DNA of 64,000 bases from positions 337,714,001 to 337,778,000 of the forward strand of contig JBNRSN020000001.1 of NCBI GenBank assembly GCA_051313645.2. Direction: 5' to 3'. The translations under genes were made by a program, and so were the position numbers. The DNA comes from Centroscyllium fabricii. Taxonomy: Eukaryota. The notes beneath the pieces were generated by a model. It was not told where the DNA came from. It searched no databases and saw only the letters and a list, made by a program, of their open reading frames with translations. Of this stretch, positions 1-32,260 are shown in pieces. Numbering within the stretch: the stretch's first letter is position 1; every line of letters begins with the position of its first letter.

Positions 1-163
1 GCATCCTCTCCAAAGCAATCACATCCTTCCTATAATGTGGCGACCAGAACTGCACACAGTACTCCAGCTGTGGCCTTATCAACGTTTTGTAGAGCTCCAT
101 CATAACCTCCCTGCTCTTATATTCTATGCCTCGGCTAATGAAGGCAAGTATCCCATATGCCTT
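1..163 (-). mobile_element. CR1 LINE ORF2 fragment
   Basis: Minus strand encodes AYGILAFISRGIEYKSREVMMELYKTLIRPQLEYCVQFWSPHYRKDVIALERM, typical CR1 ORF2 C-terminal region. Confidence 0.9.
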
Positions 164-1189
164 GGTGTGGTGTTCTCCATTATGGGCCATGGCCTTTCAC
201 TTCAGTTTTTCAATGAAGAAAATTGTTTTCCCACTTACTCCATTGGAAATATTAATAGCTTTTCATTACCAATCATGTTATACCACTGGTTACTGGTGGT
301 TCCAAAGAAAACAAATGCACCCTTTGCCTTAACCAATTGTTTCCAATGCCAACTATTACCTTGCAAGTACCATGTAGGAATATACAACATTTAATCATAT
401 GAAAATCAGAGACGGACTAAGGGCGGCACTACATTGAGGGCCCAAGGGCCTGTACAGTGCTGTATGTTCTATGTTCTATGATTACTATTTTCAAATTTTT
501 TTTGTTGACATTTTTCATTAAAATAAAATAAAAAATTATCCTTATGTCGTGCAATAACATGAGTGTCAAAGTTAAGTTATATGGATGTATAAAGCTAATC
601 TGTTCAGTGATGGCGATAGTTTTTGTGAACATCTCCTTACTCCCAGAGACAAATTTAGATCGACGTTTCCACAATACTGCTAGAAATGGGACTATTTTCA
701 CCAACACCCTGTAGAATTTTTTAATAAATTATTTTAGTCTCTTCCAACCAAGTTATGTTACTCCTATCATCTCTTCACCTGCTTTTTTAATTTAAAAAAT
801 CTTGCCAATTTCTTCCCCGCACTTCCTTTCATGAAGCCACTGATTCGCTGTTGGAGGACAGCTCAGTGGGTATGGGTCACCTGCCAATACTTCATTCACT
901 CTGTCGCCATTGTTCATGTGTGAGCATTGGTAATGAGCATAAGCAGAATGTTTGAATTTCCAGGTGCCCTCACCTGTCCTCCACACACAGAAATTACAAC
1001 ACAGTAATAAGTCATGCAGCCCAACCAGTCAGTATTGGTGCTTATCGTCCACATGAGCAGCATTCCTCATCCCATGTGCCTGCTCTGTGGCATTTAAGCA
1101 GTGGTCACTGGCTATAATTATCAGGAAAGGGAACCTTAGCTGATTTGCCTCTCGTTTGCCCAGACAGCAGTCAGAGCACAGCCCTATCT

Positions 1190-1520
1190 GAGAGATTGTT
1201 TCCCATGGCTGGAGAGTCCAGAACTCGGGGGCACAGACTCAGGATAAAGGGTCGTCCATTTAAGACAGAGACGAGGAGGAACTTCTTCACTCAGAGAATT
1301 GTGAATCTTTGGAATTATCTGCCCCAAAGGGCTATGGCTGCCACTGAGTATATTCAAGGTTGAGATAGATAGATTTTTGGACTCTCGGGGAAATCAAGGG
1401 ATATGGCGGTCGAGCGGGAAAGTGGAGTCGAAGTCATAGATCAACCATGATCGTATTGAATGGTGGAGCAGGCTCGAGGGGCCGTGTGGCCTACTGCTGC
1501 TCCTAGTTCTGTTCTTATGT
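1190..1520 (+). mobile_element. CR1 LINE 3' end
   Basis: FPMAGESRTRGHRLRIKGRPFKTETRRNFFTQRIVNLWN followed by a CR1 3'UTR/tail. Confidence 0.9.
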
Positions 1521-1537
1521 AGATTAGCTACCTCAGC

Positions 1538-1666
1538 CTGACGAACGGTCTTCAGCCTGAAACGTTAACTGTTTCTCTCTCCACCGATGTTGCCTGGCCT
1601 GCTGAGTTTCTCCAGCGTTTTCTGTTGTTATTTTGGATTTCCAGCATCCGCAGTATTTTGCTATTG
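1538..1666 (+). mobile_element. Penelope-like element terminal fragment with degenerate hammerhead motif
   Basis: CTGACGA..GAAACGTTAACT followed by the same terminal sequence that follows the endonuclease-coding remnant at 25503-25994. Confidence 0.75.
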
Positions 1667-2073
1667 TACCTCAGCCTAGACTTGGGATCAAACCTGTGGT
1701 CCTCCTAGTCTGTATGGTTCAGCTACTCGCTGAATAAACTCACTGAGCCAGTGGTGAAGCGCCATTACTAACATCTCTACATTTTACATTTCATCTTCTT
1801 GCTGGTCATCCTGCGTTTCACATTAAAATAAACACTCCAGAAACATCAAGCTTCCAGTTGGAGCCAGATTTGGAGGTAGCCGGCAGTAAAAGCTGAAACT
1901 GCCACTGATGCCAAATGTTTCCATCAGACTATCGTCAGAACCCTGCTGTTATAATCTTGCATACAAAGGCAAATATCCTGTACAACTATAATCATAACGT
2001 AAATACGCCCTTCCCTCATTATAAGATGCTTTCTAGGAGCTGACCATTTTGTACCTAACATAATGATGTGCAT

Positions 2074-3508
2074 AATAATAACAGAAAACACTGGAGAAAC
2101 TCAGCCGGCCAGGCAGCATCGGTGGAGAGAGAAATAGAGTTAACAGGGGGAATTTTTCCGGAAGGGCGGGAACCTGGCGGGGATTGGTCGGGGCGGCTTC
2201 TGGTCCCGCCCACCCAACCAGCTGGGAAGGCCATGCAATTTTAGGTTAATGAGGTCGTTAAATCCCCGCCGGCGGCAGCGGCAGGTGATTAGGTGAATCG
2301 AGTCGGGCTGCAGCAGAGCTGCGAGCACTTTGATTCACAGTTCCAGTACTGGTTGTTGTCAGTTCCCATGGCAACACTCCACTGTGACAACACTCCACTG
2401 TGACATCACAGTGGAGTGGAGCCAATGTGAAAGGCCAAGTGCTGGTGACTGACAGGTGGGCGGGTGGGCTCCGAATCGCTCACAGCTCGCACCAGCTGAG
2501 AGGCCATTGTGGGAACTGAGATTGCTCAGTTTCTGGTCTCAGCTGATATTGAAGGCAGAACGGAGGTACTTACTCCTCTAAGGTGCTGGAGGCATGCCAA
2601 GCATTTGGCAGCATGTCCTTCAGACCTTAAAGGAGAAAGTAATAAATTCAGGAACTCACACAACACCAGGTTATAGTGCAAAAGTTATAACCAGCGCTGT
2701 GCTCCCGCGGGGTTTCACCCAGTGGGGTTTAAGGTGGCGGGGTTAGGGCAGCAAACAGCGCAAAATGGCTGAGGGCCCTTAAAATGGCATTAAAGAGGCC
2801 AATTAAGGGCCCTTAACGAGGTGACAACCCATCCCCGCCGGTCGGCTGCGGGAAGGTTTCGGGGCAAGGAATCTGGGGGCGGGAAAATGAGAAAGCGGCG
2901 CGGATCTGGCGGGACCTGCCGGTTCCGCTATTTTGCCAGCCCGGCCACCCAAAACCCCGCCTCACGGGGACATGAAAATTTCCCCCAACGTTTCAGGTCG
3001 ATGACCTTTCTTCAGAACTGGAGAAGCCGGCAGGGGGGATAGATTTTAAAGCTCATAGGGGCTGGGGAAAGGGGATAGGAGGGGGGGTGAAAGAACAAAG
3101 TTAAGATCAGGAACAGGCTAGAAGGCGGGGCAGATGAGATATTAGGAGAAATTCTTATATCCCCCGCCTTCTAGCCTGTCGCTGATCTTTCCTTTGTTCT
3201 TTCTGCTCCCCCCCCTCCCCCCTTTTCCCAGCCCCTACTAGCTTTAAAATCTAGCCCCCCACCCCTCCCCGGCTTCTCCAGTTCTGAAGAAAGGTCATCG
3301 ACCTGAAACGTTTTGTTTTCTGTTCCCTCTCAGGTCCCCCTGCCTTCCTACCCGTTTCATTTCCTGGCTTTTGTCTTGACAAAGGGTCCGAACCCGAAAT
3401 GTCAACTCTATATATTTCTCTCCATGGATGCTGCCTGGCCTGTTGAGTTTCTCCAGCATTTTCTGTTGTTATTTTGGATTTCCAGCATCTGCAGTATTTT
3501 GCTATCGT
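2074..3508. mobile_element. Penelope-like fold-back element (2074-2144, 2987-3312, 3370-3508) interrupted by a DNA element
   Basis: Inverted arms 2987-~3140 and ~3160-3312, each with CTGAAGAAAGGTCATCGACCTGAAACGTT; terminal sequence shared with the 7267-7806 element. Confidence 0.8.
2145..2986. mobile_element. Non-autonomous TIR DNA element, PIF/Harbinger-like (copy 1)
   Basis: Ends (A)GGGGGAATTTT ... AAAATTTCCCCC with a 3-bp AAC duplication (2142-2144, 2987-2989); homologous to 20934-23142. Superfamily inferred from GGG termini and the 3-bp TSD. Confidence 0.65.
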
Positions 3509-3604
3509 AATGAGGTGCATGTTGTAGTGAGTGTCCCATAACCTAATACACAATGCAGTAGGAAAGGTCAGCAGCCACCTTAAAAATAGTAATTGGACAG
3601 GGAG

Positions 3605-5653
3605 CCTTATAAAAGCATTTGCAACTATCTTCAGCCAGAAATGCCGAGTGGATGATCCATCTCGGCCTCCTCCTGAGGTCTCCAGCATCAGATGCCAGTC
3701 TTCAGCCCATTCAATTCACTCCAAGTGATGTCAAGAAACGGCTGAAGACACTGGATACTGCAAAGGCTATGGGCCCTGACAACATTCCGGCAATAGTACT
3801 GAAGACTTGTGCTCCAGAACTAGCTGTGCCCCTAGCCAAGCTGTTCCAGTACAGCTGCAAAACTGGCATCTACCCAGCAATGTGAAAAATTGCCCAAGTA
3901 TGTCCTGTCTACAAAAAGCAGGACAAATCCGACCCGGCCAATTACCGTCCCATCAGTCTACTCTCAATCATCAGCAAAGTGATGGAAGGTGTCATTGACA
4001 GTGCTATCAAGCGGCACTTACTCAGCAATAACCTGCTAACTGACGCCCAGTTTGGGTTCCGCCAGGGCCACTCAGCTCCTGACCTCATTACAGCCTTGGT
4101 CCAAACATGGACAAAAGAGCTGAACTCAAGAGGTGAGGTGAGAGTGACTGCCCTTGACATCAAGGCAGCATTTGATCGAGTGTGGCATCAAGGAGCCCTA
4201 GCAAAGCTGAAGTCAATGGGAATCAAGATGAAAACTCTCCATTGGTTGGAATCCTACCTAGCACAAAGGAAGTTGGCTGTGGTTGTTGGAGGTCATTCAT
4301 CTCAACCACAGGACATCACTGCAGGAGTTCCTCAGGGCAGTGTCCTAGGCCCAACCATCTTCAGCTGTTTCATCAATGACCTTCCCTCCATCATAAGGTC
4401 AGAATTGGGGATGTTCGCTGATGATTGCACACTGCTCAGCACCATTCGAGACTCGTCAGATACTGACGCAGTCCGTGTCCATATGCAGCAAGACCTGGAC
4501 AACATTCAGACTTGGGCTGGCAAGTGGCAAGTAACATTCGCACCACACAAGTGCCAGGCAATGACCATCTCCAACAAGCATGGGCAGCACAGCATGGTGG
4601 CATAGTGGTTAGCACTGTTGCCTCACAGCGCTAGAGACCCGGGTTGAAATCCGGCCTCGGGTGACTATCTATGTGCAGTTTGCACATTCTCACCGTGTCT
4701 GCGTGGGTTTCCTCTGGGTGCTCCGGTTTCCTCCCACAGTTCAAAGATGTGCGGGTTAGGTTGATTGGCCATGATAAATTGACCCTTAGTGTTAGGGGGA
4801 TTAAATAGGTGGGGTTATGGGGATAGGGTGGGATATGTGTCGGTGCAGGCTCGATGGGCCGAAATGGCCTCTATATGTACTGTAGGGATTCTGTGATTCT
4901 GTGAAGCGAGACTCTAACCATCTCCCCATGACATTCAATGGCATTATCATTGCTGAATCCCCCACTATCAACATCCTGGGGGTTACCATTGATTGGAAAC
5001 TGAACTGGACCAGCCATATAAATACTGTGGCTACAAGAGCAGGCCAGAGGCTGGGAATTTTGCGGCGAGTGTCTCACCTCCTGACTCCCCAAAGCCTTTC
5101 CACCATCTACAAGGCACAAGTCAGGAGTGTGATGGAATACCCTACACTTGCCTGGATGAGTGCAGCTCCAACAACACTCAAGAAGCTCGACACCATTCAG
5201 GATAAAGCAGGCCGCTTGATTGGCACTCCATCCACCACCTTCAACATTCACTCCCTCCACCACCAGCGCACTGTGGCTGCAGTGTGTACCATCTACAAGT
5301 TGCACTACAGCAACTCGCCAAAGCTCCTTCAACAGCACCTTCCAAACCCGCGACCTCTACCACTTAGAAGGACAAGGGCAGCAGACGCATGGGAACGGCA
5401 CCACCTACAAGTTCCCCTCCAAGCCACACACCATCCTGACTTGGACCTGTATCGCCGCTCCTTCACTGTCGCTGGACCAAAATCCTGGAACTCCCTTCCT
5501 AACAACATTATGGGTGTACCTACACCATATGGACTGCAGCGGTTCAAGAAGGCAGCTCACCACCATCTTCTCAAGGGCAATTAGGGATGGGCACTAAATG
5601 CAGGCCTAGCCAGCCAGCGACACCCACTTCCCATCAATGGATATTAAAAAAAA
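3605..5653 (+). mobile_element. 5'-truncated CR1/L2-group non-LTR retrotransposon (RT domain with stop/frameshifts)
   Basis: KAMGPDNIP, QFGFRQGHS, LDIKAAFDRVWH, GVPQGSVLGPTIFSCFINDLP and MFADD RT motifs; A-rich tail near 5650; interrupted by a SINE. Confidence 0.93.
4581..4903 (+). mobile_element. tRNA-derived V-SINE (HE1-like), short CR1 tail type
   Basis: A/B-box-like head (TGGCATAGTGG, GGTTGAAATCC), V-domain GTTTGCACATTCTC..GTGTCTGCGTGGGTTTCCTC..GGTGCTCCGGTTTCCTCCCACAGT, GATTCTGT tail repeat; AAGC duplication in the host LINE. Confidence 0.88.
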
Positions 5654-7336
5654 GGATGGGATGTAATATCACAAATTATTTTTAAAATTATGATGAGCCT
5701 TGTAGAAAGGGTTTGTTTGGTCAGCACATCTATAATCAAGAATATTTGGATTGCTCACTGTTGGCTACAACTTTCACATCAAGATATCATTTTTTATGTT
5801 GGCTATCAGTTACATTTTGGGGGACAATTTTAACTGAAGATCAGAATGCTCGGGTGGTCTAATCTGACAGTAGTAACGCATTATTCTTAAAAGCTTTTCT
5901 TTAATTGAGAGATATGTAACAATTAAAATGCATTTCAAAAGGCAGGCAATTTCTATATACTATTGTTGTGAAATACTGCCAGGCAGGCACTTATAAGATG
6001 TTAAAAGGTTTATTAAACATTTTCAGGATCTCTTAACATGAAAATGTTTCACATTGTCGGAACTTAAAATGGAGCCTTTTTTTTCCGATTGGGACTACCT
6101 GTTAAGAAAGAGATTTAAAGCAATGAATAACTTCAAGGCAAAGGACCACAATCAAAGAGAGGGTTGAAGAAGTGCTAAATTGTTACCGAGCCTGTGTTAC
6201 CAGAATACAATTAACATATGCAAATACTCAATGAAACCAGACCTTTGACAAAGTGAAGAGCAAATATTTAAATCATTTTACGACAGGAACAGCTCCAAAT
6301 GTCTTATCAGCATGGGAGCTTTATCCATTTTATCTCATCAAAGGGGGCTGACAGTTTAGTTGGATGCTCCGTGGGAAGCCAAATGCCCAGATCTTCAAAG
6401 AATGATAGTGTCAACCAGATCTGATCCAGGATCAGTTAAACATACTTTCTAAAACAATTGGCATTCCCCAAATGCTTGCAACTTTAAGTAGAACCAAGTT
6501 AATCTTTCAAGAGCTTGATATATATTTTATGTACCACATTCCATACAAAAAGGACTTAGAGTAACTGCGCATCTTTTCTGATACTTTCAAAGTTAAAGAA
6601 TGCCTCATATTTAAGTTTGTATCTGCTTTCAAAGCTTCACAGCATCTTCCCCAACCAGGGTTTACATGCAACAAACCGAAGCTTCATTTGTTTTTCTGAA
6701 TAGAAAACCTCAAGGAGAACAAAGATTTAAATGAAGAGGATTAATTACCACACAGCATTTTGTTTCGAAATAGTTGAAAATCAGTTCTAAAACAGAAGAG
6801 GTGTATACGCAATTGTCTTTAACCAAAAGGGTGAAAAAAAGAATAATTTTAAGCAATGCAACAATGAGTAATGTGAACTTGATACACATGGGGGAGAAAT
6901 GCAGGAACTAAACTTTGTCTGTACGAACATATCCTATTGCATTTTTAGACAGTGACGCAAAACCCTACTTTTAAAGCCATCAGATTGTCCACATACTTTA
7001 TTAGAAACAAGTGGTGCAACTGGACAGATCACATTATTACTCATAGTCTTGAACATCTACATTTAATTCCCAGCATTTACATTTTTGTTTCAGATAGCAC
7101 TCTGCTCCCCTCTCTCTATGTGCAGTTTTCCCACCATTTTTAAAAGCACTATTTATAGGCTTAAAACAACACCTTTAGGACCAGGTCAATGGGCTTTTTT
7201 GGACTAATAGTAATTATTCCAGGACTTAAACTCTTCAGACTATTACAATGAAAGGAACAAAAAAAAATCCAAAATAACAACAGAATATGCTGGAGAAACT
7301 CAGCAGGCCAGGCAGCATCGGTGGAGAGAGAAACAG

Positions 7337-7373
7337 AGTTAACGTTTCAGGTCGATGACCTTTCTTCAGAACT
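7337..7373 (-). ncRNA. Minimal type I hammerhead ribozyme motif (sense to LIN28B pre-mRNA)
   Basis: AGUU-CUGAAGA-A-AGGUC-AUC-GACCU-GAAA-CGUU-AACU: stem I AGUU/AACU, core CUGANGA and GAAA, 5-bp stem II, palindromic stem III. Confidence 0.75.
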
Positions 7374-7672
7374 GGAGAAGCCGGGAGTGGGGGGGATAGA
7401 TTTTAAAGCTTGTGGGGGCTGGGGAAAGGGGGTGGGAGTGCTGAAAGAACAAAAAGAAAGATCAGCGACAGGCTAGAAGGTGGGGGAAGGTAAGAGACAT
7501 TAGGAGAAATTCAAGGAACACAGGATGGCTCTAATTTCTCCTAATGTCTCTTGTCTCCCCCGCCTTCCAGCCTGTCGCTAATCTTTCCCTTTGTTCTTTC
7601 AGCACCCCCCCCTCCCCTGCCTTTCCCCAGCCCCTACAAGCTTTAAAATCTATCCCCCCTCCCGGCTTCTCC

Positions 7673-7709
7673 AGTTCTGAAGAAAGGTCATCGACCTGAA
7701 ACGTTAACT
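7673..7709 (+). ncRNA. Minimal type I hammerhead ribozyme motif
   Basis: Same motif as 7337-7373 on the opposite strand. Confidence 0.75.
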
Positions 7710-8984
7710 CTGCTTCTCTCTCCACTGATGCTGCCTGGCCTGCTGAGTTTCTACAGTGTTTTCTGTTGTTATTTCAGATTTCCAGCATCCGCAGTATTTT
7801 GCTATCAAAAAGAAATCCAAGGTATGATAAAATAGTAACAGCTTGATGTATCTTTCCTCCAATAGCCATGTTTAATTTCCACAATATACTACGTCCAGTT
7901 AAAAGAAAATGAACTGTGTCCATTTGCTTAACAGATTTATAAAATTAAATATTTTTTTGAAACTCAGCAATTCACACATATTAAAACTGTTTACCATGCT
8001 GATCAAACAACAGTTATCAAAATGTCATTGCAAAATATGACATTTTATGAGCTGGCTATGTCAGATCTACAAATTAAATTGTGATTTACAATTTCCTATA
8101 GTTTACCTTACAAAAGCCAGTAGCATTAAGGCAACACAGAAGGGCCAATGTTCGCAACAAAAATCAATAGATTGAATATACTGATTATCTCTGCTGACCA
8201 CAACAGTATTTTTACAATACATTCAACCATCTTGATGATATGTTTAACCCCACTTGAAATCAACATGTCAGGATCACATTCTCACTACGGCCATTTTTGC
8301 GTTTTCCCCTCATACCCAAACCAATAGTAAAGCACACTCAGCATCGCGATCATTAGATCAATCATTAACAATGTTTCTTAGTAAATTGTCTAGAAAATAA
8401 ATTAGTAAATTAGAAATGTAATCTTTCAAACTAGTTTAAAACTATAAAATACCTATTTTTTTTACACACTGAATTATAAAGTCAATCCTATAATCAATAA
8501 ACCTTTCTTCTAAAAAAACATTTTAGAGGTACATAACGATCACACACAATGTATTTCCCCCTTTTTGAAGATAAAAGCATTTCTAGTATATTTTAGAATC
8601 CAGATAGTCACAATTGATAGTTTTAAACAATGTAATCAAAATTTCCATTCAAAGTCAGGAGCTGCAGCAAAGTGAAAATGAATGACTGTGTAATATAACC
8701 TTTCTTACATTGTGGCACAGTTGTACTTTTGCAGATCTGTACACTTCTTGGTTTTGTCAACGTAAGACTTTAAACTGAACTTAAGTAGGTTGTGATCCCT
8801 ACTTATCTGAGAACCACAAATCTCAAAATTAACGTCTCAAATTCAAATATTTTTACATTTCCATGACTTGTGGAGAAATACTAGTGGAATCTCTCCACTG
8901 GTGTGTCACATCACAAATCACCTTCAACAGATTGAGAGGGAGATTACAAAAATTAAGCCCATCATTTATGGGCGGTGGATACAA

Positions 8985-9177
8985 GTTCATTGAATATATT
9001 CAAGAAGGAGCTGGATGCATTTCTTAATGCTAGAGGGATCAAGGGATATGGGGAGAAGGCAGGGACAGGGTATTGAGTTTGGATGATCAGCCATGATCTC
9101 ATTGAATGGCGGAGCAGGCTCGAGGGGCCGAATAGCCTACTCCTGCTCCTATCTTCTATGTTTCTATGTTTCTATGT
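8985..9177 (+). mobile_element. CR1 3' tail fragment
   Basis: GATCAGCCATGATCTCATTGAATGGCGGAGCAGGCTCGAGGGGCCGAA plus (TTTCTATG)n tail, as at 62520-62650. Confidence 0.88.
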
Positions 9178-9654
9178 AAAAATGTATTTTTCCAGTTTAA
9201 CTACTGCACACATTATGAATATGTTGTGGTTAGCCAGATCATATGTTAAACATCTCCAATCATGAAGAAACTCTAAGTAACCCATCAATACTTCACTCAT
9301 GAGTTATCTGGTCAGCCTTTCTTTTGGAGACAATTATCATATTTTGTGCCTTGACAGCATAGATCCCCTTTCTGTACAATAAATAAAAATGATAATCAGA
9401 TGTAAATATAAAACACACAAATACAAGAGGCAGTCAACAGATTATATAAATATACTAAAAACTGATGCAGTCATTCATTTACAGTATTAAGATATATTTC
9501 ATTATACATTCCCAGTTATTTATGATGTTTTTGTTAAAGGCTGCTAATTTATCAGTATTTACTAGCTACTTCCAATATTACATTGTAATATAATGTAGAA
9601 TTGTTTGAAAATGTTAAAATCTACTTTTAAAAATCATTCTTGACTTGTGCGGTG

Positions 9655-9975
9655 TTGGTTGATCTCAGCTGGGTACCAATGGCCTAAGTGACCTCTTGGT
9701 TGAAGATTGTGGGGGGGAGGGGGCGTGCGAAAATTGTCGAAGCATCCCATGCCTGATCATTATCCAGTAACCCCATCTAAAGTTTTGCTTTTGTACAATC
9801 ATGGGAGGACAGAAGTGGGGTTGGCCATGATGCCTTTCATAGTTGGATAGCCTGTTGGCACTCAATGTCTAAACATAAATAATAGATATTCTGGGGTGAT
9901 ATCAGGGTGCCTTGCACCAGTGGATCCATACCACAGCAAGGGGTCAATGCCTTTAGGAGCTGAGGAGAAGGGAGG
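9655..9975 (+). mobile_element. Old, diverged SINE-like repeat (family unassigned); related copies near 34960-35240, 46950-47460, 49800-50070 and 59240-59390/60432-60540
   Basis: Diverged shared blocks (CCTGAT..TATCCAGT, ATAGCCTG.TG.CACTCA, ATGAAGAATGGCC, TGCCTTCAGGAG) recur across these loci. Confidence 0.5.
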
Positions 9976-10611
9976 GACAGGGAGAACAATTGCAAAGTAA
10001 ATTAGCAAGAGAAAACTAAATATCTGAAATGGAAGTTTACACTGTTATATTTTAAACTAACCTTTCTGTTTTTATCCTTAATATTAGCAGATTTAGAAAT
10101 AATTGATGTCTGATATGTTGCTTTGTAGCCAATCTTTGGAGTCAAAGATTGCTTTTCAATTTGAGTAACATCTCTTGTGGTGTTTAGTGATATTGTCTTG
10201 TTGTGTTTAGTGTTATTTTCATACACTATCAGGGCATTATTTTAGCATCATTCAAGGAGGATCATTTACTATTAAGTGTAAGATTGAAGTGCTGAAAAAA
10301 ACCCACTTCCAAATATTTCAAAAAGTTAAGACATTTTGACAAGTTGCAACTAAACCACACATCGCTGTCTGAGTTTTTCTTGAAGCTTAATTCCGCAGGT
10401 TTCCTTTACAGGTATAAATTGAGTACACTTATTCAATACACAACTAAACTTCAATCATTCTGTATGCCACACCATCAATGCAGCTAACAATTTTTCAAGC
10501 TGCTTTTTTTAAACTAAAGGCCAAGAATCAGTACATTGTTTAAAAGACAGCTACTGCCAAAATTAAAAACTTCAGAAAACAGCTGGCCCAAACCTCTCTC
10601 TAGACCATAAA

Positions 10612-10722
10612 GAAAAGACTTGCATTTATATAGCACCTTTCACAACCACCGGACATCCTAAAGCGCTTTACAGCCAATGAAGTACTTTTTTGACGTGTAG
10701 TCACTGTTGTAATGTAGGGAAT
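10612..10722 (-). mobile_element. Deu-domain SINE / L2-type 3' tail fragment
   Basis: Reverse complement of the tail at 39890-39988. Confidence 0.75.
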
Positions 10723-12559
10723 ATTTCATAGAAATAAAGCAAGTTTGAACATCAAACCATGAGCAAGTGTATAAAGCTTGAACTTCAAAATCAAAATCTA
10801 TTTCATCCGCACAACTTAACTGAGAATGAATATAACCAAAGCAAGTTTACATGAATTATTTGAAAACTAATTGGTGTTTGATTGAGACCACAACGATTAG
10901 GGACGTGTCAAAGAAATGCAAATGATATTCAACAGCAGGTGCACACTTACACCATAATAAATCGGCTGAGATTCTTTTCTGGCTGTTTACATCTTACAAT
11001 AGAAGATTTTTTTAATTACTCCTAGAACAATTTATATATTAAAATATAGTTTTGTATAGTTGGTAACCATTAATTCAACACTCAATTCCTCACTCCCTTG
11101 ATCTGTTTATACTGCAACTGACTGAGAAATTCACATAAATAATGCATAGTTTCTTTTACTCCATCAATTTTAAGATATTAAGTCTAACTACAGGTGGTTT
11201 GTTGGTCATAGATTCAGTGAAGTCTTGTGCAAGACGGTAGCATAAAGGGTGTTTGAAAACTTGGAATTATTTCATTCTCATGAAGAAACATTGAACTATT
11301 CACCTTTTCTAAAATAAGATTACATTTTCCTTTCATTGTCCCTCATGTGATTTTACCTCTGAAGCTATTAAGACGCATTTTTAAACGGTACACAATTGGA
11401 AAATGCAACTATACTTTTTTTAACTGCTCTTTTCATCGCTGTGATGTAGAATACATGTCAAAGAACATACAATGATCGCTCAACATAAGCCTTACAGTAA
11501 TGACAATTACCACAGATCTGACAAGAGGCAAGTTTTTTTTCCACCAGCACTGAATTACTTGAACAAGTAGAGGCTCTAAATGCACTTGTGGAAATGTGTA
11601 TGTCACTGTGTTAGCTAACAATGTTAACAATCTCAGAGCACAAGTGGACGAGAATGTATTTAATTATATAATTCGCAGAACACGCTGGATAAATGTAAAT
11701 TTATTTAATTTGCTAAAATCAGATGCAACAAATTCCAACTAAAGCCCATTGGAACTCCTGGCCAGGGTAACAAGGAAGCTGAACATACATGGGGCAGCAT
11801 ACCTAAAACAGGGTAATAACCGGGTGGAAACCTCCCTTACTTCAATATTTAATTTTAATGATTCAAATCGTTGCCAATAAACAAATACATGCGTGCAAAA
11901 GCGATTTGCTGCCTTATAAACCGCGAGCGCGTCATTCAAACGGGAGTCGAACCAGTAAACACTAAACACACGCTGAGCTTGAACCACAACCAGGTAAAAG
12001 TTTCGTGTTTTTTTTTAAAATGCTAATTTTACGCGTTGCGATTAGATTCGCGCGAAGAAACGTGGACCGAGGGGGTGAGACTTGAATGGAGATTGTAGCC
12101 CGGGTCTGCCCGGTGAAAACTCCCTGCCATGGGAGCAAGAGGATGCGACCAACTCCCCCGAAAACGCGTTTCTCCCCTGTCCTGGCGCTGTATTCGTCTA
12201 TAAAACAATCTTACGAGGTCGTAAACCCCTTACTTAACGACCCAAGGAAGGTTTAGAGAGAGACAGAAAAGAACTTTTAAATACAGACACAAGTATAGAA
12301 AACAAGCATGGGCACGGAGCGCTGGGACCCAACACAAGGGCAGATTGTGCGGCTTGTGGCCACAAACCAGTCTGAGTCCCCTCGCCTCCCCCAAAATGAT
12401 ATTTCACATATTCAAATCTGTTTACCGCCAATTATGGGAGGCAAATGACTGCAAAGTGTATATAATTCTGTGTGTATAATTCTATGTATTTAATTCTATG
12501 TAAATGATTGTGTATATACCAATTATGTGTATATACCAATTATTATGTGTATATCACTG

Positions 12560-13147
12560 TGTATATATCAACCATTCTGTGTATATATCAACCATTCTGT
12601 GTATATATCAACCATTCTGTGTATATATCAATCATTCTGTGTATATATCAGTCATTCTGTGTATATATCAGTCATTCTGTGTATATATCAATCATTCTGA
12701 GTATATATCAGCCATTCTGAGTATATATCAGCCATTCTGTGTATATATCAGTCATTCTGTGTATATATCAGTCATTCTGTGTATATATCAGTCATTCTGT
12801 GTGTATATCAATCATTCTGAGTATATATCAGTCATTATGTGTATATATCAGCCATTCTGAGTATATATCAGCCATTCTGAGTATATATCAGCCATTCTGA
12901 GTATATATCAGCCATTCTGAGTATATATCAGTCATTCTGTGTATATATCAGTCATTCTGTGTGTATATCAATCATTCTGAGTATATATCAGTCATTATGT
13001 GTGTATATCAATCATTCTGAGTATATATCAGTCATTATGTGTATATATCAGCCATTCTGAGTATATATCAGCCATTCTGAGTATATATCAGCCATTCTGA
13101 GTATATATCAGTCATTCTGTGTATATATCAGCCATTCTGTGTATATC
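12560..13147. repeat. 20-bp minisatellite (TATATATCAGCCATTCTGAG/TG), ~29 units, in LIN28B intron 2
   Basis: 20-nt periodicity is directly visible; degenerate units extend left to ~12460. Confidence 0.97.
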
Positions 13148-13975
13148 ACTGTGTGGATTTGATTCTGTGCATCGTAAGAAGCCAATCATTGATCGCACAG
13201 TGGGCAGACATCCTGCATCTGAAGGTGCTGCAATTATCAACAATCCAATCCAAGTTTCTTTTAATAAACTATTTGCTCCTCCAGAAATCTTCCGAGGCCA
13301 ATCGTCACACAATAAAGCGGGAGAAAAGGGGAACCTTTCTCTTGCACTCCCCGAGTTTTGCAAGAAAACGCCGTGGAATAAATATCACGGTGGCGGTTTT
13401 AAAGCTTTCAGTCTTTCGGAAGGGGACTGTATATTGCAACAAACGCCCCTCAATATTTCCCTGTACCAAACATGCAACAGTCTTGAGTCTAGCATTTCCG
13501 GGTTTCACCTCTGACCTTGACAAGCAGATCGTTATTGTGATATTTTTGCGCCGGCAGGGAACACCAATTGCCATGTGGATGGCGTTTTCCTTTAAACTTC
13601 GCTCATGCATCAGACTTTCTCCGTCGCTTTTTCATCCGCCACCCAGTAAAAAATTATTGTATGCAACAAAAAAGTGTATTCAGCCAGGCAATCATGAAAC
13701 GGTTGACTACAACCTCCCGCTATCTGGTTTCCAGAGTTACACCACTCCAGATTGGCGAAAGGGAGGGGGGCACAGCACAGCACATATGAAACGTGAATGA
13801 AATGGGATGGGAGCCGATTCCAGCTCCTACCGTACAATCCAGAACATTTACACCAATTGCGCGGGTTTTTTTTTTACAATTGAGCTTTAACTATTTCTCT
13901 ACAGACAACCCCTCCCCCTTCCAAAAGCAAAACATTTGTTTTATGAATGAAACTGGCGGAATTATGCAAACTTAC

Positions 13976-14157
13976 TTGGTGTACGAAAACATCGACTGGC
14001 GTCTCCAAGGGGGTGCCTTCCCGAGAGGTCATGGAGATAAACCCGAATCCCATCCTGACGTTGAACCATTTACAGTGGCCTGCTCCCTGCTGGAGCTGAG
14101 ATTCGTCTTTCTCTGTTAATTTTCCTTTTTCGTCTCCACCACCTTTACCCGTCCCTC
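13976..14157 (-). CDS. LIN28B: LIN28B coding exon 2 (N-terminal part of cold-shock domain)
   Basis: Translates (G)GTGKGGGDEKGKLTEKDESQLQQGAGHCKWFNVRMGFGFISMTSREGTPLETPVDVFVHQ, the LIN28 CSD signature with a LIN28B-type N-terminus. Flanked by pyrimidine tract + CAG acceptor (14160-14158) and GTAAG donor (13975-13971). 182 nt, phase 1 in and phase 0 out, as in vertebrate LIN28B. Confidence 0.96.
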
Positions 14158-14931
14158 CTGGACAATTGCGAACACAAGAGGGGAGAGAGAGAGAGAGAGG
14201 GGAGGAAAAACAAGGTTTCAATTGATCTGACGGAAAAGAGGGGATGGGGGGGGGGAGTGGAAATCATTAACAAAGTACATTTAAAAATAAGCTTCTGAAA
14301 GAAAGCACTTCACACATCGACATGGACATTGGCTGAAGCCTATATGGCAAAGCCATTGTAATATCGATTCTGATCCATGTGCAATCCTCCTTTACTCCAT
14401 GTTTGAGGCAGCAAATTACGATCAGCAAACCGTACGTAACTGGAATAGGGCTGGTTTAAAACGGAGCCCATCGCCCGCAGAAACCAGTGTCACACACAAG
14501 CCCGGCTATTCTCCACAAATCGTCATCAACATTCAACAGCGCCGATCGCCAGAGCTCTTTTTTTTGTATTGCTGTGCTCGAACCAGCTTCGTATTTCTGC
14601 TGAAGAAAACTACTGTCGCGTCCAGCGTGCGTCCTCCGATCAAACTTAAGGGGCAGGTGTACAGTGTGTGTTGCCCCCTTCCCCGCACACACACACACAC
14701 ACTGGAGAGAGCGAGCGAGAGAAAACTGTGCTTAATCGGACACAAACAGTCCACACAATAGCCCTCAGAAAGCCTTTGAAGTTGTGAATAAATGGGGGGC
14801 GGGTACATACATTTTGGGAGATCTACAACAATGGGTTTGGAAAAGCCCCCCTTCTGCGATCTCTTAAAAGTATGCAGCCCAAAAAAAAAAGGATTTTTTT
14901 TTAAACAAAAAGAGAGAGAGAGAAATGTAAC

Positions 14932-14941
14932 CTTCGGCCAT
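14932..14941 (-). CDS. LIN28B: LIN28B coding exon 1 (ATGGCCGAAG, MAE-G)
   Basis: CAAC-ATGGCCGAAG|GT on the minus strand; the phase-1 donor joins exon 2 in frame to give MAEGGTGKGGG, matching the LIN28B start MAEGG. Confidence 0.92.
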
Positions 14942-15190
14942 GTTGTCACACAGGCCCCTGTGTCCAAACCCGCCCGATGAGAACTTTTTCCTTGGAATGG
15001 GTAATCTTCGGCATCAATCTAGCGTCATAGGGATCAAACATTTAGCAATCGCCAATGCTCACATGGTCTAACGTTAGAGTGTCCCCTCCCTCCCTCCCTG
15101 GCACACACGTGACTCGTCAATTACATGCCTTCTTGCCGCTAATTACACATCGCAGGCTTTCCAGAGGCAGAACAGAGCCAATCGGCCGCC
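14942..15190 (-). promoter_or_regulatory. LIN28B: LIN28B 5'UTR and proximal promoter with E-box (CACGTG 15106-15111) and CCAAT box (15178-15182)
   Basis: Minus strand reads AATTGACGAGTCACGTGTG...TTAGACCATG...TAGATTGATGCCGAAGATTAC...CAACATGG, resembling the mammalian LIN28B 5' end as I recall it. The motifs are directly visible. Confidence 0.75.
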
Positions 15191-17897
15191 CCTCTAACCT
15201 GTCACCGCATTCATCGATGATTCAAACCACCCCCCCCCCCCACCCCCCAAAAAAAACCTCCCGATTTTTTACCCAGCTAATTTGTCCGACATTTTTGATG
15301 AACCGGTCAGCTCGATACACTTAAAGCCTCAGGGTTTCTTCCCCCCGTTGTTTTGCTTTCTGTGGGGAACGTCAAGCTAATGCAACATATACTAACCACA
15401 GATCAACTGTTATGATAAACACGATTATATATAAACTGACAATGCTGTGTGTGAATTTATTCGCAAATCTCGACAGTTCACACATCGCTGGCAATAATCC
15501 TATGTAAATATTGTTAATGCAGTGAAGAGTTGTGAATGTAATATTCTGATTTTATATAATTATATATAGTTAAATATAGGAAGGACAGATTTTTAAATTG
15601 TGCAAAAGGAGTCCCGGGCATGTCGCCGACGGTTTTTTTTATTTAGTAACATTCAGGAGAAGCTCTCCACACAAAATAATCAAAGATCTCACAAAAGATA
15701 TTGGATACTTTTCCTTCCGAGTAATAAACGCGAGCGGAGAGCGGCGGCTTTTGTGCCGCCGCCTTAAAGCAAGGTGATACCATTTGAATGTAAGATGTCA
15801 TTTTTTTTTAATGATCTCCGTTTAAACTATAAAACGGTTCATCAATCACACAAGCCATACTTGATGCCTTTATTTCAGAATGAGGATTCCAGTGACGGTG
15901 TCTTTTGCAAGCATTTTGGGCAGTGTTGGCTTTTAAGGCCACATGTACCCAGTTTTGAAAGTATATATATATATCATCAACACTAAAGATGATTAGTCTT
16001 CTCCCACATGCGACTTTCCCTCACTTTTTGTTAAAAGGAAATGCCCCTTCCAAAGGGGTTCAAAGGTCAAGCATTTGCTTCATTGCTCCTGTTGTTATTT
16101 TGAAATACCTTTACATTTGGCGTTTGGAGGAGAAATGTGCAAGGCTCTCTGAAAAGGGGATGGTAAAAGTTGGTGTTCTAGGAAGGGGGGGGAGGAAAGT
16201 GGCCGATTTTACATTGTTTGCTATGCATTGTCGATTACCATGCGTTTTACTCAAAAAAAAACTGGCCTGACGTGTCGGCGCCAACTAGTCTGACCAATTG
16301 TAAGGGGCAGTTTGCGCTTAAAGGGCTTGTTTACTGTTCTAACATCAGCGTCTTAAAAGTCGCAAACATTTGCTTTCGCACAACGTGCACTTTTGTCCAC
16401 CTAAAGTGCGCTGGTCAAGCATCGCAGGAGGTTTGGGGCAGATTTTTTTAACGGGTTAGGGGAGGGTAGAGAGAGAACAGCCTACTAACTCGCAGTCCTG
16501 AAATTCCTTTGAAGTCTTCAACCGTAAATTTCCTATAGGTTATTTCAACAGAGCGTGAGTTGAGGTCCAATCTCTAAACCGACCTAAAATGGTTGCGTTT
16601 GTTGGCTCTGTGATCACTCTCGTCTCTTTTTTCTCTCTCTCTCCAGTGTTTCCAGTACCGCTTTGTACCAGGCCATCGATTGAATTTAAAACCATCAAAT
16701 CTTCAAAAAAAAAATCATGCTGCGGTCCCCTACACGTTTTACAAATAACCTTTCATTTTACTACGATTACTTGCGCCACGCAGCCACATGCAACCAAGAA
16801 AAGCCCACATGCCCACCGTTTCCAAAAGAATGATATGTGCCTGCCTTCTGCAAAAGATGTAAGTGCACTTATTCCAAACAAAGACACGAAAAACAATCGA
16901 AAGGCACCAGTTTATTTGCAAACGCCCAATGAGTATATGGGGGTCGAAGTTGGTATTTTATTCGTGACGCGCGCCTCAGACAAGTTAAGGATACTTTTAA
17001 ATTCTTGAAATTCTTAAAGTCCCCGTTAACAGAGCAAATGGGCAATCTTTAAACGGGGGGTGGTGTTGAAAGCTTTCAGTTTTACTGAGTGCGCAATGCT
17101 TCCCGAAACTCATAAATGAACCTCCCTCCCCCCCAATAATTACAAATCGATAAAGTCAGCTAGCATAAATACAACTGATAGATCCCAGTTTCTCCTTTAA
17201 TATTTGATCCTCCGACTGCGGGCGGCAGAAACGGCTGTTTCAGGCTTTTCCTCGTATTAGGAGAATTAAGATCGGGTCAGCAGAGTGGTCACTGGGTGTC
17301 AGATGTTATCGAGTCATTCATTTCCTGTGCGAGGACATCAGCCTTTCAAGTCATGCAAAGGTATAGCTTTGGTCAGCTGGGAAGCCCACATCCCAGCTTT
17401 AGCCCATTCAGAAACAATCAGCCAAGTTGTTCTTTATAAAGAAAGCTTTTTTTTTTAAAAACGCAATTCTTTAACAAAATACAAAAAAAAACACAGCTTA
17501 GAGAATGTAACCGGCTGCAGCAAGCAGTTTCCCAGTAAGCCTTTATGTGCTTGCTCAAAATAACTTTTTAAAGTCTTTATTACACGTTTCTCACGTTTCT
17601 TCCTGAAAGATCCGACTTGAAGATAAAAAGTTTAAATTTTTTGCTGAAGTCCCCCACCATAAGCTTCACATTCTGGAGCCTCGACCTTACCCGGCGAGTG
17701 TGCCTTGACCAGCCAGCAAGGAGGCATCGTCTTTCGGAGGTCCTATTGAGAAAGGTCTCGGTCTCTTGGGCAAACGCTGATTTTTTTTTCTCTCTATCGA
17801 ATTCAGTATTGTGGGTATAATTAAACCCCAAAAGCAATTCGTCAGATCAGATTTAGGTTTCGTCGCGCCGAAGAAAACTACTCGGCGTTTCATTTTA

Positions 17898-18177
17898 AAC
17901 ATAGAAGATAGGAACAGGAGTAGGCCATTCGGCCCCTCGAGCCTGCTCCTCCATTCAATGCGATCATGGCTGATCATCCAAACCCAGCACCCTGTCCCTG
18001 CTTTCTCCCCATATCCCTTGATACCTTTAGCTCTAAGAAATATATCTAACTCCTTCTTGAATATATTTAATGACCTGGCCTCAACTACATTCTGTGGTAG
18101 AGAATTCCACAGGTTCACCACTCTCTGGGTGAAGAAATTCTTCCTCATCTCTGTCCTAAATGGCTTACCCCTTATCT
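17898..18177 (-). mobile_element. CR1 LINE 3' end
   Basis: IRGKPFRTEMRKNFFTQRVVNLWNSLPQ plus CR1 tail. Confidence 0.92.
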
Positions 18178-18239
18178 GCTGCATCTGCTTTTTGTTTCAA
18201 CAAAATGGGCTTTGTGCGATTCAAGATCTATAAAGGAAT

Positions 18240-18578
18240 AACTTGCATTTATATAGCGTCTTTCAGGAGCTCAAGATGCCCCCAGAGCGCTTTACAGACA
18301 AGGGGAGCACTATTGAGGGGTTGTGATGTAGGAAACGCAAACATCAAGTTCACAAAAACAGCAATGAGATAATGACCAGATAATCTGTTTGAGTGATATT
18401 GGTCGAGGGATAAACATTGTCCAGGACACTTGGGCAACTGCTGCCCCTCTTCAAGACAGTGCGACCTGAGAAGGTAGATAGGGCCATGGTTTAACGTCTC
18501 ATCCAAATGAAGGCACCTGGGACAGTGCAGCACTCCCTCGGTTCTGCGCCTGGATTATGTGCTCCAGTCTCTCGAGTC
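18240..18578 (-). mobile_element. Deu-domain SINE (SacSINE1-like), diverged
   Basis: Reverse-complement similarity to 39530-39988. Confidence 0.7.
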
Positions 18579-18950
18579 CATGGCCTCGCTCCTCCCTATC
18601 TCTGTAATCTCCTTCAGCCCCACAAACCCCCGAGATATCTGCGTTCCTCTAACTCTAGATCTTGAGCATCCCTGATTATAATCGCTCAACTATTGGTGGC
18701 CATGCCTTCTGTTGCCCAGGCCCTAAGCTCTGTAATTCCCTGCCTAAACCTCTCTGCCTCACTACCTCTCTCTCCTCCTTTAAGATGCTCCTTAAAACCT
18801 ACCTTTTTGACCAAAATTTTGATCACCTGCCCTAATTTATCCTTATGTGGATTGGTGTCAAATGTTTTGTTAAAATACCCCTGTCCAGCGCCATGGGAGG
18901 TTTTACTACGTTAAGGCGCCATATAAAAATTCCAGTTGTTGTTGTTGTTG
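18579..18950 (+). mobile_element. L2-type LINE 3' end
   Basis: HGLAPPYLCNLLQP..LRSS motif, WNSLP-like block, (GTT)n tail. Confidence 0.75.
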
Positions 18951-19455
18951 GAGTAGGGCTCTGACCTGCGACCTCCTGATTCCGCTCCCACTGAGCAAGA
19001 ATGACACCCAAATATAAAGAAAACGCAACACACGATACGTTTAATAACGATTAGCTTTCATAGCACTTCCATCATTTAATGATAGGTCAGTGTCCATGAT
19101 GGATATTTTCAGAAATTGGAAAGAATATGTAGATTTAATCCGCAACATTACCATATTGCTAAAGCACCCATTTTAGAGCCTTGTTTATGCACAATTCGTT
19201 GCGATTCCTGCATCTTCGGTTGAAATGAAAGTTCAGAAGAATTATATTTAAAATTATAAATGGAAATATTTACCTGTTATTTATATTTATAAAATATAGT
19301 TTGGTATTTACATCAGTTTTTTAAATTAAAATACATGCGGGAGACTTGTTAGATAAAACGAATCCACTAAAATCGAATTTCCAACTATTCTCAATGTGCG
19401 GCATTGACTCGCCAGGGGATGTGAGTTAACAAGTGATTCGGATACTTCATTAGTG

Positions 19456-19780
19456 NNNNNNNNNNNNNNNNNNNNNNNNNNNNNNNNNNNNNNNNNNNNN
19501 NNNNNNNNNNNNNNNNNNNNNNNNNNNNNNNNNNNNNNNNNNNNNNNNNNNNNNNNNNNNNNNNNNNNNNNNNNNNNNNNNNNNNNNNNNNNNNNNNNNN
19601 NNNNNNNNNNNNNNNNNNNNNNNNNNNNNNNNNNNNNNNNNNNNNNNNNNNNNNNNNNNNNNNNNNNNNNNNNNNNNNNNNNNNNNNNNNNNNNNNNNNN
19701 NNNNNNNNNNNNNNNNNNNNNNNNNNNNNNNNNNNNNNNNNNNNNNNNNNNNNNNNNNNNNNNNNNNNNNNNNNNNNNNN
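19456..19780. other. Assembly gap (325 N)
   Basis: Run of N. Confidence 1.
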
Positions 19781-19967
19781 TTCACTATTTAGGGTGGTAT
19801 TAGTCACATACTTAGGATTTTACCAGACGACCGATGATAAGGCTTTGGCTATCCCTTTTTTAAAATCCCTTTCTAAGTAAAATTTACATCTGCCAGATCA
19901 GCAGCACCTCTTCATTCGAAATGATTAATCTTAAATATAAACTAACAATGGAGTTCTCCATTGATAG

Positions 19968-20095
19968 GATAGCAAAATACTGCGGATGCTGGAAATCCGA
20001 AATAACAACAGAAAACGCTGGAGAAACTCAACAGGCCAGGCAGCATCAGTGGAGAGAGACAGAGTTAACGTTTCAGCTCGATGACCTTTCGTCAG
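19968..20095 (-). mobile_element. Penelope-like terminal fragment with hammerhead motif
   Basis: Minus strand CTGACGAAAGGTCATCGAGCTGAAACGTTAACT plus the conserved terminus. Confidence 0.8.
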
Positions 20096-20933
20096 CCCAT
20101 AGATGATGGCTGGTGACGGATTAAACGTTAAGCGTGTGCTTTAGACACCCAAAAATATTCAATCTTTAATCTGATAACAAATCGAAGCGATTCTCTGTAA
20201 AAACACATTTTGAATTGTCATTGGAACGGATTGAACAAGAGGTGAGCGCCTTTCTCAAGTGAAGTGATGGCAGCGTGTATTTTTAAATGGGGGGTGGTGA
20301 CAAACCGACCCGATCAACCTTGCCTGATTATGGAGGTGTTTACAGCAGTTCGACTCAAGTCCAGCAGACTTTCTAGTTTGTGTTTGCAGTTTTCAAACAC
20401 AGTTCCAGTCTAGAGCGATCGGACATGCGACTATCTCGCGCCTCAATTCCATTTTTATTGGTTTAAGTGGCAAATCAAGTGTCACGCGGACCCGACCAGA
20501 CAGTAAAGTCCCAAAATGTGGTTCAACGCAACATATTTCGTTCTATCGAAACGGAAATGATTCGGTCGCGTTTAAATAAAACGTCGTCGATTGGGGTTGC
20601 GTTTCATCGTGGCCGGTCGTTTGTTACAGGCTGTTCGATAGTCCCAGGTTTGGGGGCAGTAATCACTTCACAAAGCGTCTTTTGTTTTAATTGAAAACGA
20701 CCAACGGAGGGGGGAAAACAAATTAAACTTTATTTGACATACAGCGTGGATCCCGTTAAGATCAGGAATCAACCATTCTGAATGCCGGGCGGTGGTTAAT
20801 TATTTATATATTTGATATAAATTAACATCTGTTTGACTTAATGCCTTGGGGTTTAATCCCACTACAATAACAGAAAACGCTGGAGAAACTCAGCCGGCCA
20901 GGTAGCATCGGTGGAGAGAGGAACAGAGTTAAC

Positions 20934-23142
20934 GGGGAGATTGGAAGGGCGGGAACCTGGCGGGGATTGGTCTGGGCCGCTTCAAACAGCTGGGAAGGCC
21001 ACTCAATTTGTTTAATTAGGTTGTTAAATCCCCGGGCGGCAGCAGGAGGTAATTAAGTCAATCCAGTTGGGCTGTAGCAGGTCTGCTAGGAGTTTGATTG
21101 ACAGTTCCAGCACTGGTTGTTGACAGTTCCCATGGAAACACTCCACTGTGATATCACAGTCGAGTGGAACCAATGGGAAAGGTCAAGTGCTGGTGACTGA
21201 CAGGTGGGCGGGCAGGCTCCGAATCATTGACAGCTCGGCACCTGCTGTGAGGTAATGTGCAAAGCTGAGATTTCTCAGTTTTTGCTCACAGCTGGTGCAG
21301 CAACCACAGAGTTACTTACTCCTCTAAGGTGCTGGAGGCATGCCAAGCATTTGGCAGCATGTCCTTCCCCACCTTGAAGGAGAAAGTAATGACCAGCACT
21401 GTGCTCCCGCTAGAGCGGGGTTTAAGGTGACAAGGCAAAATGGCTGAGGGCCCTTAAAATGACACTAAAAATGCCAATTAAGGGCCCCATACGAGGTGAC
21501 AACCATTCCTGCCGACCGGCGGCGGCGGCAAGGTTTCGGGGCGGGGAATGATGGGGGGGCGGGGAATGATGGGTTGGGGGGGCGGGGAATGATGGGTGGG
21601 GGATGCGGGGAATGATGGGTGGGGGGGGGCGGGGAATGATGGGTGGGGGGGGGCGGGGAATGATGGGTGGGGGGGGCGGGGAATGATGGGTGGGGGGGGC
21701 GGGGAATGATGGGTGGGGGGGGCGGGGAATGATGGGTGGGGGGGGCGGGGAATGATGGGTGGGGGGGGCGGGGAATGATGGGTGGGGGGGCGGGGAATGA
21801 TGGGTGGGGGGGGCGGGGAATGATGGGTGGGGGGGGGGCGGGGAATGATGGGTGGGGGGGGGCGGGGAATGATGGGTGGGGGGGGCGGGGAATGATGGGT
21901 GGGGGGGGCGGGGAATGATGGGTGGGGGGGGGCGGGGAATGATGGGTGGGGGGGGCGGGGAATGATGGGTGGGGGGGGGGCGGGGAATGATGGGTGGGGG
22001 GGGCGGGGAATGATGGGTGGGGGGGGCGGGGAATGATGGGTGGGGGGGGCGGGGAATGATGGGTGGGGGGGGCGGGGAATGATGGGTGGGGGGGGCGGGG
22101 AATGATGGGTGGGGGGGGCGGGGAATGATGGGTGGGGGGGGCGGGGAATGATGGGTGGGGGGGGCGGGGAATGATGGGTGGGGGGGGCGGGGAATGATGG
22201 GTGGGGGGGGCGGGGAATGATGGGTGGGGGGGGCGGGGAATGATGGGTGGGGGGGGCGGGGAATGATGGGTGGGGGGGCGGGGAATGATGGGTGGGGGGG
22301 CGGGGAATGATGGGTGGGGGGGCGGGGAATGATGGGTGGGGGGGCGGGGAATGATGGGTGGGGGGGGCGGGGAATGATGGGTGGGGGGGCGGGGAATGAT
22401 GGGTGGGGGGGGCGGGGAATGATGGGTGGGGGGGGCGGGGAATGATGGGTGGGGGGGGCGGGGAATGATGGGTGGGGGGGGGCGGGGAATGATGGGTGGG
22501 GGGGCGGGGAATGATGGGTGGGGGGGCGGGGAATGATGGGTGGGGGGGCGGGGAATGATGGGTGGGGGGGAATGATGGGTGGGGGGGGCGGGGAATGATG
22601 GGTGGGGGGGGCGGGGAATGATGGGTGGGGGGGGCGGGGAATGATGGGTGGGGGGGCGGGGAATGATGGGTGGGGGGGGCGGGGAATGATGGGTGGGGGG
22701 GGCGGGGAATGATGGGTGGGGGGGGCGGGGAATGATGGGTGGGGGGGGCGGGGAATGATGGGTGGGGGGGGCGGGGAATGATGGGTGGGGGGGGCGGGGA
22801 ATGATGGGTGGGGGGCGGGGAATGATGGGTGGGGGGGCGGGGAATGATGGGTGGGGGGGCGGGGAATGATGGGGGGGCGGGGAATGATGGGTGGGGGGGC
22901 GGGCGGGGAATGATGGGTGGGGGGGGCCGGCGGGGAATGATGGGTGGGGGGGGGGGCGGGCGGGGAATGATGGGTGTGGGGGGGCGGGGAATGATGGGTG
23001 GGGCGGGGAATGATGGGTGGGGGGGGCGGGGAATGAAAAAGCGGCGGGGATCCTGCGGGCGAGGTCGGGACCCGCCGGTTGCGCTATTTTGCCGGCCGGG
23101 CCGCCGAAAACCCCGCCTCACAGGGACATGAAATTGACCCCC
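20934..23142. mobile_element. PIF/Harbinger-like non-autonomous element (copy 2) inside a Penelope terminal fragment (20866-20933, 23143-23161)
   Basis: Colinear with 2145-2986; GGGG...CCCCC ends; AAC duplication at 20931-20933 and 23143-23145. Confidence 0.65.
21539..23037 (+). repeat. G-rich ~23-bp minisatellite (GCGGGGAATGATGGGTG6-9), ~60-65 units
   Basis: Directly visible; G-run length varies between units. Confidence 0.97.
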
Positions 23143-32123: not shown

Positions 32124-32260
32124 CAGTTCTGACGAAAGGTAATGGAGCTGAACCGTTAACTCTGTTTCTCTCTCCACAGATAATGCCTGACCTGCTGACT
32201 ATTTCCAACATGTTCTGTTTTTATTTCAGATTTCCAGCATCCACAGTATTTTGCTTTTGT
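32124..32260 (+). mobile_element. Penelope-like terminal fragment with decayed hammerhead
   Basis: AGTTCTGACGAAAGGT..GAACCGTTAACT plus terminus. Confidence 0.75.

Follow-up and report, generated by a model that had tools for sequence, protein, structure and literature searches.

It is described as typical of Penelope-like elements (PLEs) that an inverted, 5'-truncated copy lies at their 5' end and that a tail is found at one end (PMC8557442 and PMC8969392), and both features also appear in PMC3846280. Pairs of minimal hammerheads on opposite strands, separated by 100-700 bp, have been known since 2014 (PMC4209133), and the cleavage of minimal hammerheads as dimers is summarised in PMC6765202. 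In this study, we show that a palindrome at 7265-7806 of a 64,000-nucleotide stretch of DNA from the shark Centroscyllium fabricii (the whole stretch analysed, hereafter the window) belongs to a PLE family with thousands of copies, bears a tail on one of its two arms and lies within a target duplication, and that the junctions of such fold-backs are scattered. A fold-back with two hammerheads is ordinary Penelope anatomy; inverted copies, tails and opposite-strand hammerheads have all been published already.

The endonuclease-bearing (EN+) PLEs of the Neptune clade (PMC8557442, PMC3846280) share with the shark family a reverse transcriptase (RT) with a C-terminal GIY-YIG domain, a Cys-rich linker, 5' truncation, an inverted adjacent copy, a one-sided tail and a target duplication, whereas the window copy is a non-coding 3' end only, with a tail of ~26 nt as against 30-40 there. 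The minimal PLE hammerheads of PMC4209133 are likewise of type I, with a 4-bp stem I, an extra nucleotide between A9 and stem II, a palindromic 15.2-16.2, a U3-A8 variant and opposite-strand pairs. In contrast to them, stem II of the shark motif has 5 bp and is closed by A-U where G10.1-C11.1 is usual. The Poseidon element of Anolis, PAc (PMC11167929), resembles the shark family in having a tail defined by two preferred 3' ends, with a hammerhead upstream of both, but it belongs to another clade, its start sites lie inside the ORF start, and its ribozyme was shown in vitro to be dispensable and to be assisted by protein. Non-LTR retrozymes (bioRxiv 10.64898/2026.07.22.740005) are also PLE-derived, hammerhead-bearing and non-coding; however, they are head-to-tail tandem units, each with a hammerhead, whereas the window element is head-to-head and is not amplified as a unit.

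The palindrome and its parent family

The left arm of the palindrome (7265-7532, minus strand; reference positions 880-1142) pairs with the right arm (7533-7806, plus strand; reference positions 901-1168) at 88.5% identity over 253 aligned nucleotides, in good accordance with the arms of ~245 bp given in the initial annotation. Both arms are 5'-truncated PLE 3' ends. The left one extends ~21 nt deeper into the element, these nucleotides being the hairpin loop, and is without a tail; the right one alone ends in a PLE "tail" of ~26 nt (7781-7806, plus strand), a concept taken from PMC8557442 and PMC11167929. A 14-bp target-site duplication encloses the unit (7259-7272 and 7807-7820, plus strand, 13/14 identical), and the last ~8 nt of its left copy also match the end of the element, a microhomology. 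The predicted fold of 7255-7815 reaches -441.5 kcal/mol (z -40.7; equalled by 0 of 100 shuffles). Identity between the arms is uninterrupted over a run of 54 nt which spans the whole hammerhead motif and is longer than the average arm identity suggests. We consider it highly probable that the palindrome consists of two 5'-truncated Penelope-like 3' ends, head-to-head within one 14-bp target duplication, which probably arose together in one insertion event and are probably inert now.

The Penelope-like origin, which had been proposed from the window alone, is well supported by the rest of the genome. Exact 29-nt cores occur 7,039 times (reversed control, 0), and a first look by arm similarity gave 1,526 candidates, 40 of which were scored. 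In longer copies, the sequence upstream of the arm continues into a GIY-YIG frame, and one locus (L271) holds a 547-aa frame matching RT and GIY-YIG; the 5' end of this copy is truncated and adjoins an inverted 3' end. The matches of this frame to RVT_1 (E 1.5e-5; 25.3 bits against 29.6) and to GIY-YIG (E 6e-4; 20.4 bits against 22.6) are both under the curated Pfam cut-offs, and the named proteins nearest to it, at 61-65%, come from sharks and rays. A Cys-rich linker of the CxxxxCxxC type was seen by eye between RT and EN in L271, L272 and L025. No full-length element was recovered. The copies show 5' truncation, tandem or inverted terminal repeats, an optional tail and a hammerhead in the terminal repeat. 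Judged by these predicted frames, the family is an EN+ PLE with a single ORF for RT and C-terminal GIY-YIG, an assignment that holds for the family, the window copy being a truncated 3' end; the clade is probably Neptune by the Cys-rich linker criterion of PMC3846280. Elsewhere in the window, PLE 3' ends of this or a related kind occur as single arms at 1538-1664, 19968-20095, 20866-20934, 25503-25994, 32124-32255 and 42176-42302.

A second insertion in the window

The same fold-back design had been noted at 2987-3312. It is indeed a fold-back, but it actually extends over 2074-3506, and neither of its young hammerheads is intact. The insertion is enclosed by a 13-bp target duplication (2061-2073, plus strand, 12/13 identical to 3508-3520). 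Its left arm, on the minus strand, lies in two parts: the proximal part (2987-3153) ends at GUU and the distal part (2074-2144) resumes at the duplicated GTT. Between them, at the predicted scissile bond, an 842-bp non-coding Harbinger-type MITE (2145-2986) with G-run/ATTTT terminal repeats and a 3-bp duplication splits the left hammerhead, so that the end at 2987 is no truncation, the MITE lying between the duplicated GTT and the arm continuing at 2144. The right arm (3153-3312, plus strand) and its hammerhead stop exactly at GUU and are joined to a tandem piece (3313-3506, plus strand), which has a tail and a degenerate hammerhead and is the 3' end of an older, more diverged PLE subfamily, within the same target duplication.

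A template jump at the cut site, as at 3312/3313, was considered as a recurrent event and rejected, since a junction to an upstream PLE piece is found at 0 of 30 loci in which pyrimidines follow GUU; these loci are mostly short deletions or substitutions, and one (L309) is a local duplication. A count of 66 against 2 at a control position was set aside as confounded by microhomology spacing. In the same set (L295-L324), short deletions recur just past the cut site between two GTT repeats, and these are possibly repair scars of transposon excision.

Fold-backs, single-arm copies and the origin of the inversion

The sample consisted of the first 90 core-anchored loci on one contig, from which 13 passengers in one MITE were removed to leave 77 independent loci; anchoring on an exact core biases the sample towards young copies and can enter a fold-back twice. 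Head-to-head fold-backs make up 17 of the 77 and single-arm copies 60, and the resulting share of 22% is higher than the rate per insertion, since a locus with two cores has twice the chance of being sampled. The 13 passengers (L032-L035, L039, L041, L043, L044, L122, L140, L149, L153 and L156) belong to a young, TA-flanked MITE of ~700 bp, 95-99% identical among copies, which carries a fixed mini PLE fold-back with a broken hammerhead from which the 5' strand of stem I is missing.

The initial annotation had regarded the palindrome as a distinct non-coding derivative that yields a ribozyme from either strand, that is, as a dedicated non-autonomous family of ribozyme-bearing fold-backs amplifying as a unit, and had named random junctions beforehand as evidence against it. 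Both motifs are intact in the window copy, fold-backs are common (17/77) and one fixed mini fold-back has been amplified (13/90 loci), which are points in favour of such a family. However, the breakpoint pairs of the 17 fold-backs are all different and none equals that of the window, most loci are single-arm, the coding locus L271 also has an inverted 3' end, and the fixed length and structure across copies by which MITEs or fold-back DNA transposons are recognised are absent from the fold-backs. The mini fold-back is a passenger of its MITE, and the core is no better conserved than the sequence downstream (divergence 0.078 vs 0.050 among 68 copies, not anchored on the core and many picked for similarity to the arm; canonical core kept in 43/68). 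The scatter of junctions already largely refutes a dedicated family, and we give this reading very little credence.

The 3' ends of the 77 loci fall into two clusters, 39 short and 30 tailed, with 8 others. Exactly one arm is tailed in 10 of the 12 scoreable fold-backs (p=0.017 against independent ends), in a small test on one contig which left out 5 of the 17 fold-backs for being interrupted or fragmentary. By eye, direct target duplications of 13-17 bp could be recognised around at least 7 of 22 fold-backs inspected, both window copies included. Identity between the arms of a fold-back (0.93) and to other arms (0.92) reflects ordinary decay and fits one template or two alike.

The pattern of one tail per fold-back is consistent with priming on both target strands, and for the window fold-back we lean towards such a mechanism. 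The RT-endonuclease would nick both target strands ~14 bp apart and each nicked strand would prime reverse transcription; one cDNA would start at the tail start site and the other at the inner start site, and both would end early and then be joined. Nicking and extension of both strands have been reported in vitro for the Anolis PLE, along with initiation at two internal sites, by which the tail is defined (PMC11167929). The 2 of 12 fold-backs that are short on both arms are evidence to the contrary. It is also conceivable, if rather doubtful for this locus, that in an insertion by-product of the same family the inversion came from one template alone, through self-priming or snap-back. Self-priming has been argued for the head-to-head repeats of rotifer Penelope (PMC3846280), and in 12 of 15 fold-backs the identity between the two arms slightly exceeds the median value against other arms. 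At one locus (L050, ~1360-1630), the palindrome continues into the flanking DNA, which fits snap-back copying and shows that it also happens. In the window, however, snap-back from the left arm cannot supply the tail, because that arm, reaching 21 nt further, lacks it; the tailed right arm is no plain copy of the other, and the unit is flanked by direct target duplications. The thousands of shark copies permit a direct test of how Penelope inversions form.

The hammerhead motif

A motif of 37 nt, AGUU-CUGAAGA-A-AGGUC-AUC-GACCU-GAAA-CGUU-AACU, is complete on each strand of the palindrome, at 7337-7373 (minus strand) and, in identical form, at 7673-7709 (plus strand). One intact motif per strand had been claimed, and likewise the minimal type I class with a palindromic stem III; both claims agree with what we find, the core CUGANGA/GAAA/UH being present together with stems I and II, and the predicted cut falls after GUU. 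A hammerhead search had been suggested as a check. A structure descriptor finds the motif, with 173 matches in 1.15 Mb of DNA selected largely for its hammerheads and none in the reversed control, but Rfam cmscan of window positions 1-20000 (E<=10) names no hammerhead family and returns only hairpin look-alikes under the gathering score.

Taken by itself, the motif is predicted to form stems I and II with -5.9 kcal/mol, which is no better than shuffles (z -0.49), as expected because the motif is minimal. The duplex of motif and antisense is predicted at -64.8 kcal/mol against -5.9 for the motif fold, and the full hairpin is far more stable still, as given above. A motif homodimer has a predicted MFE of -17.0, in a structure that differs from the active form, and the head-to-head layout makes only one sense motif per strand available for a dimer. 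The ribozyme is predicted to be buried because this geometry puts the antisense arm first in a transcript of either strand, and its folding is predicted to be blocked because the 54-nt identical run covers the entire motif. In these models, neither window hammerhead is expected to fold, the motif being locked in a hairpin of ~250 bp within an intron that is spliced out. The hammerhead is the standard motif of the element's terminal repeat and likely functions only in the RNA of source elements, as a dimer or with help from protein.

Much of the core variation among the 68 copies compared above is subfamily change. Across the genome, the core variants U3-A8, U3-G8 and C3-A8 number 1,749, 828 and 72, and the 12 U3-A8 loci inspected have mostly different flanks. 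U3-A8 is a known covariation of the hammerhead core (PMC4209133). Its excess over C3-A8 suggests selection in source elements, with individual copies decaying, but the change counts as one or two subfamily events. There is little stem covariation within the Penelope-like family; a second hammerhead family has different stems but the same fold. This second minimal family, with an AGCU palindrome and often in opposite-strand pairs, occurs at L052:2850-2886, L067:1735-1771, L078, L086:612-700 and other loci.

The host gene

A cold-shock-domain exon near 14074 (approximate bounds 14009-14130, minus strand) has Lin28b as its best PDB matches (79 and 75 bits), followed by LIN28A (70 bits), and the gene is named LIN28B-like on these matches; the next exon lies ~144 kb before the window start. 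With exons on both sides, the element is intronic, within a ~158-kb intron after the first cold-shock exon, and its left (minus) motif is sense to the pre-mRNA, so that both the intron location and the orientation given at the outset were correct.

A co-opted role of the insertion in regulating LIN28B pre-mRNA, whether by cleavage, by editing or by small RNAs, seems most improbable. In favour of it are the intronic position and the long hairpin that a transcript would form. However, several hammerhead sites are expected in a 158-kb intron because the local density is ~15 uninterrupted sites per 264 kb, and the divergence of the window copy is typical of the family. No record containing the element sequence is listed as RNA, and contigs of four sequencing runs at the locus are dominated by other copies, with no expression or editing signal visible in them; unique flanks run into the element ends in two of the four runs, and no contig spans the element.

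A Harbinger family at the predicted cut site

The insert at 2145-2986 has the terminal inverted repeats and the 3-bp target duplication by which PIF/Harbinger transposons are recognised, and related insertions occupy the predicted cut site elsewhere (L082, L084, L085, L095, L098-L100 and L102-L104). An element of ~4.2 kb at or next to the same site (L272, ~2420-6670) has similar ends and a DDE_Tnp_4 frame (E 3e-35), and on its opposite strand a 351-aa frame without a Pfam match. Genome-wide, 1,023 of 14,809 exact ends of the MITE family (586 + 437; 6.9%) follow the 11-nt cut-site flank, and 9 of 10 loci checked, all from one of the two sets, were true PLE sites. Of the 90 ends listed first, 7 are exactly adjacent to the cut site and 5 more are so within the ambiguity of the G-run; at a second site, ~6 nt further downstream, there are another 7-8, for the most part in a more diverged subfamily. 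An exact 3-bp target duplication was found at 20 of these 90 loci, the far end being not found or G-run ambiguous at the rest. At L093, L107 and L187, GTT is doubled at the cut site, consistent with an excision footprint and re-insertion, once by a different MITE family.

By length alone, 0.006% of insertions would be expected at such sites, and the observed enrichment is ~1,200-fold, the expectation using the local density of 15 sites in 264 kb. The non-PLE targets of the family form a loose palindrome which the hammerhead cut site resembles, and according to a matrix built on 48 clean flanks 0.4-0.8% of insertions should fall there, with a bootstrap upper bound of ~2%. Target-sequence preference accounts for roughly 80-140 of the ~1,200-fold, the remainder being possibly crudeness of the model; it explains much, perhaps not all, of the hot spot. 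The second hot spot favours DNA preference over any role of catalysis. Harbinger3_DR, as described in PMC3016246, likewise has a palindromic target consensus around a 3-bp core, but the consensus of the shark family is looser and different, and happens to resemble the ribozyme cut site in another transposon. A bold reading, which we think unlikely, is that the Penelope hammerhead has become the special target of a shark Harbinger family, which would insert at the scissile bond ~1,200 times above random and several-fold above its general preference. If true, a DNA transposon would use the conserved ribozyme core of another transposon as a renewable landing site while disabling the ribozyme; targeting above sequence preference would be a new kind of transposon-on-transposon targeting. 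Our search of the literature, with most subscription journals and Repbase outside its coverage, found nothing relevant on a DNA transposon that targets hammerheads or PLEs.

Copies that end at the cut site were also considered as a sign of cleavage in vivo and rejected. A nucleotide other than A follows GUU in 778 of the 7,039 cores, and about half of 30 such copies inspected are MITE insertions, and most of the rest show point changes or small indels. Harbinger insertions at the hot spot resemble ends at the cleavage site and are a trap when ribozyme activity is inferred from genomic ends.

Other features of the window are minisatellite arrays at 12437-13266, 21511-23100 and 23522-23764, with units of 20, 23 and 22/23 nt, and two stretches, 3886-5584 and 59220-62441, that we take to be fragments of LINE-type reverse transcriptase frames.
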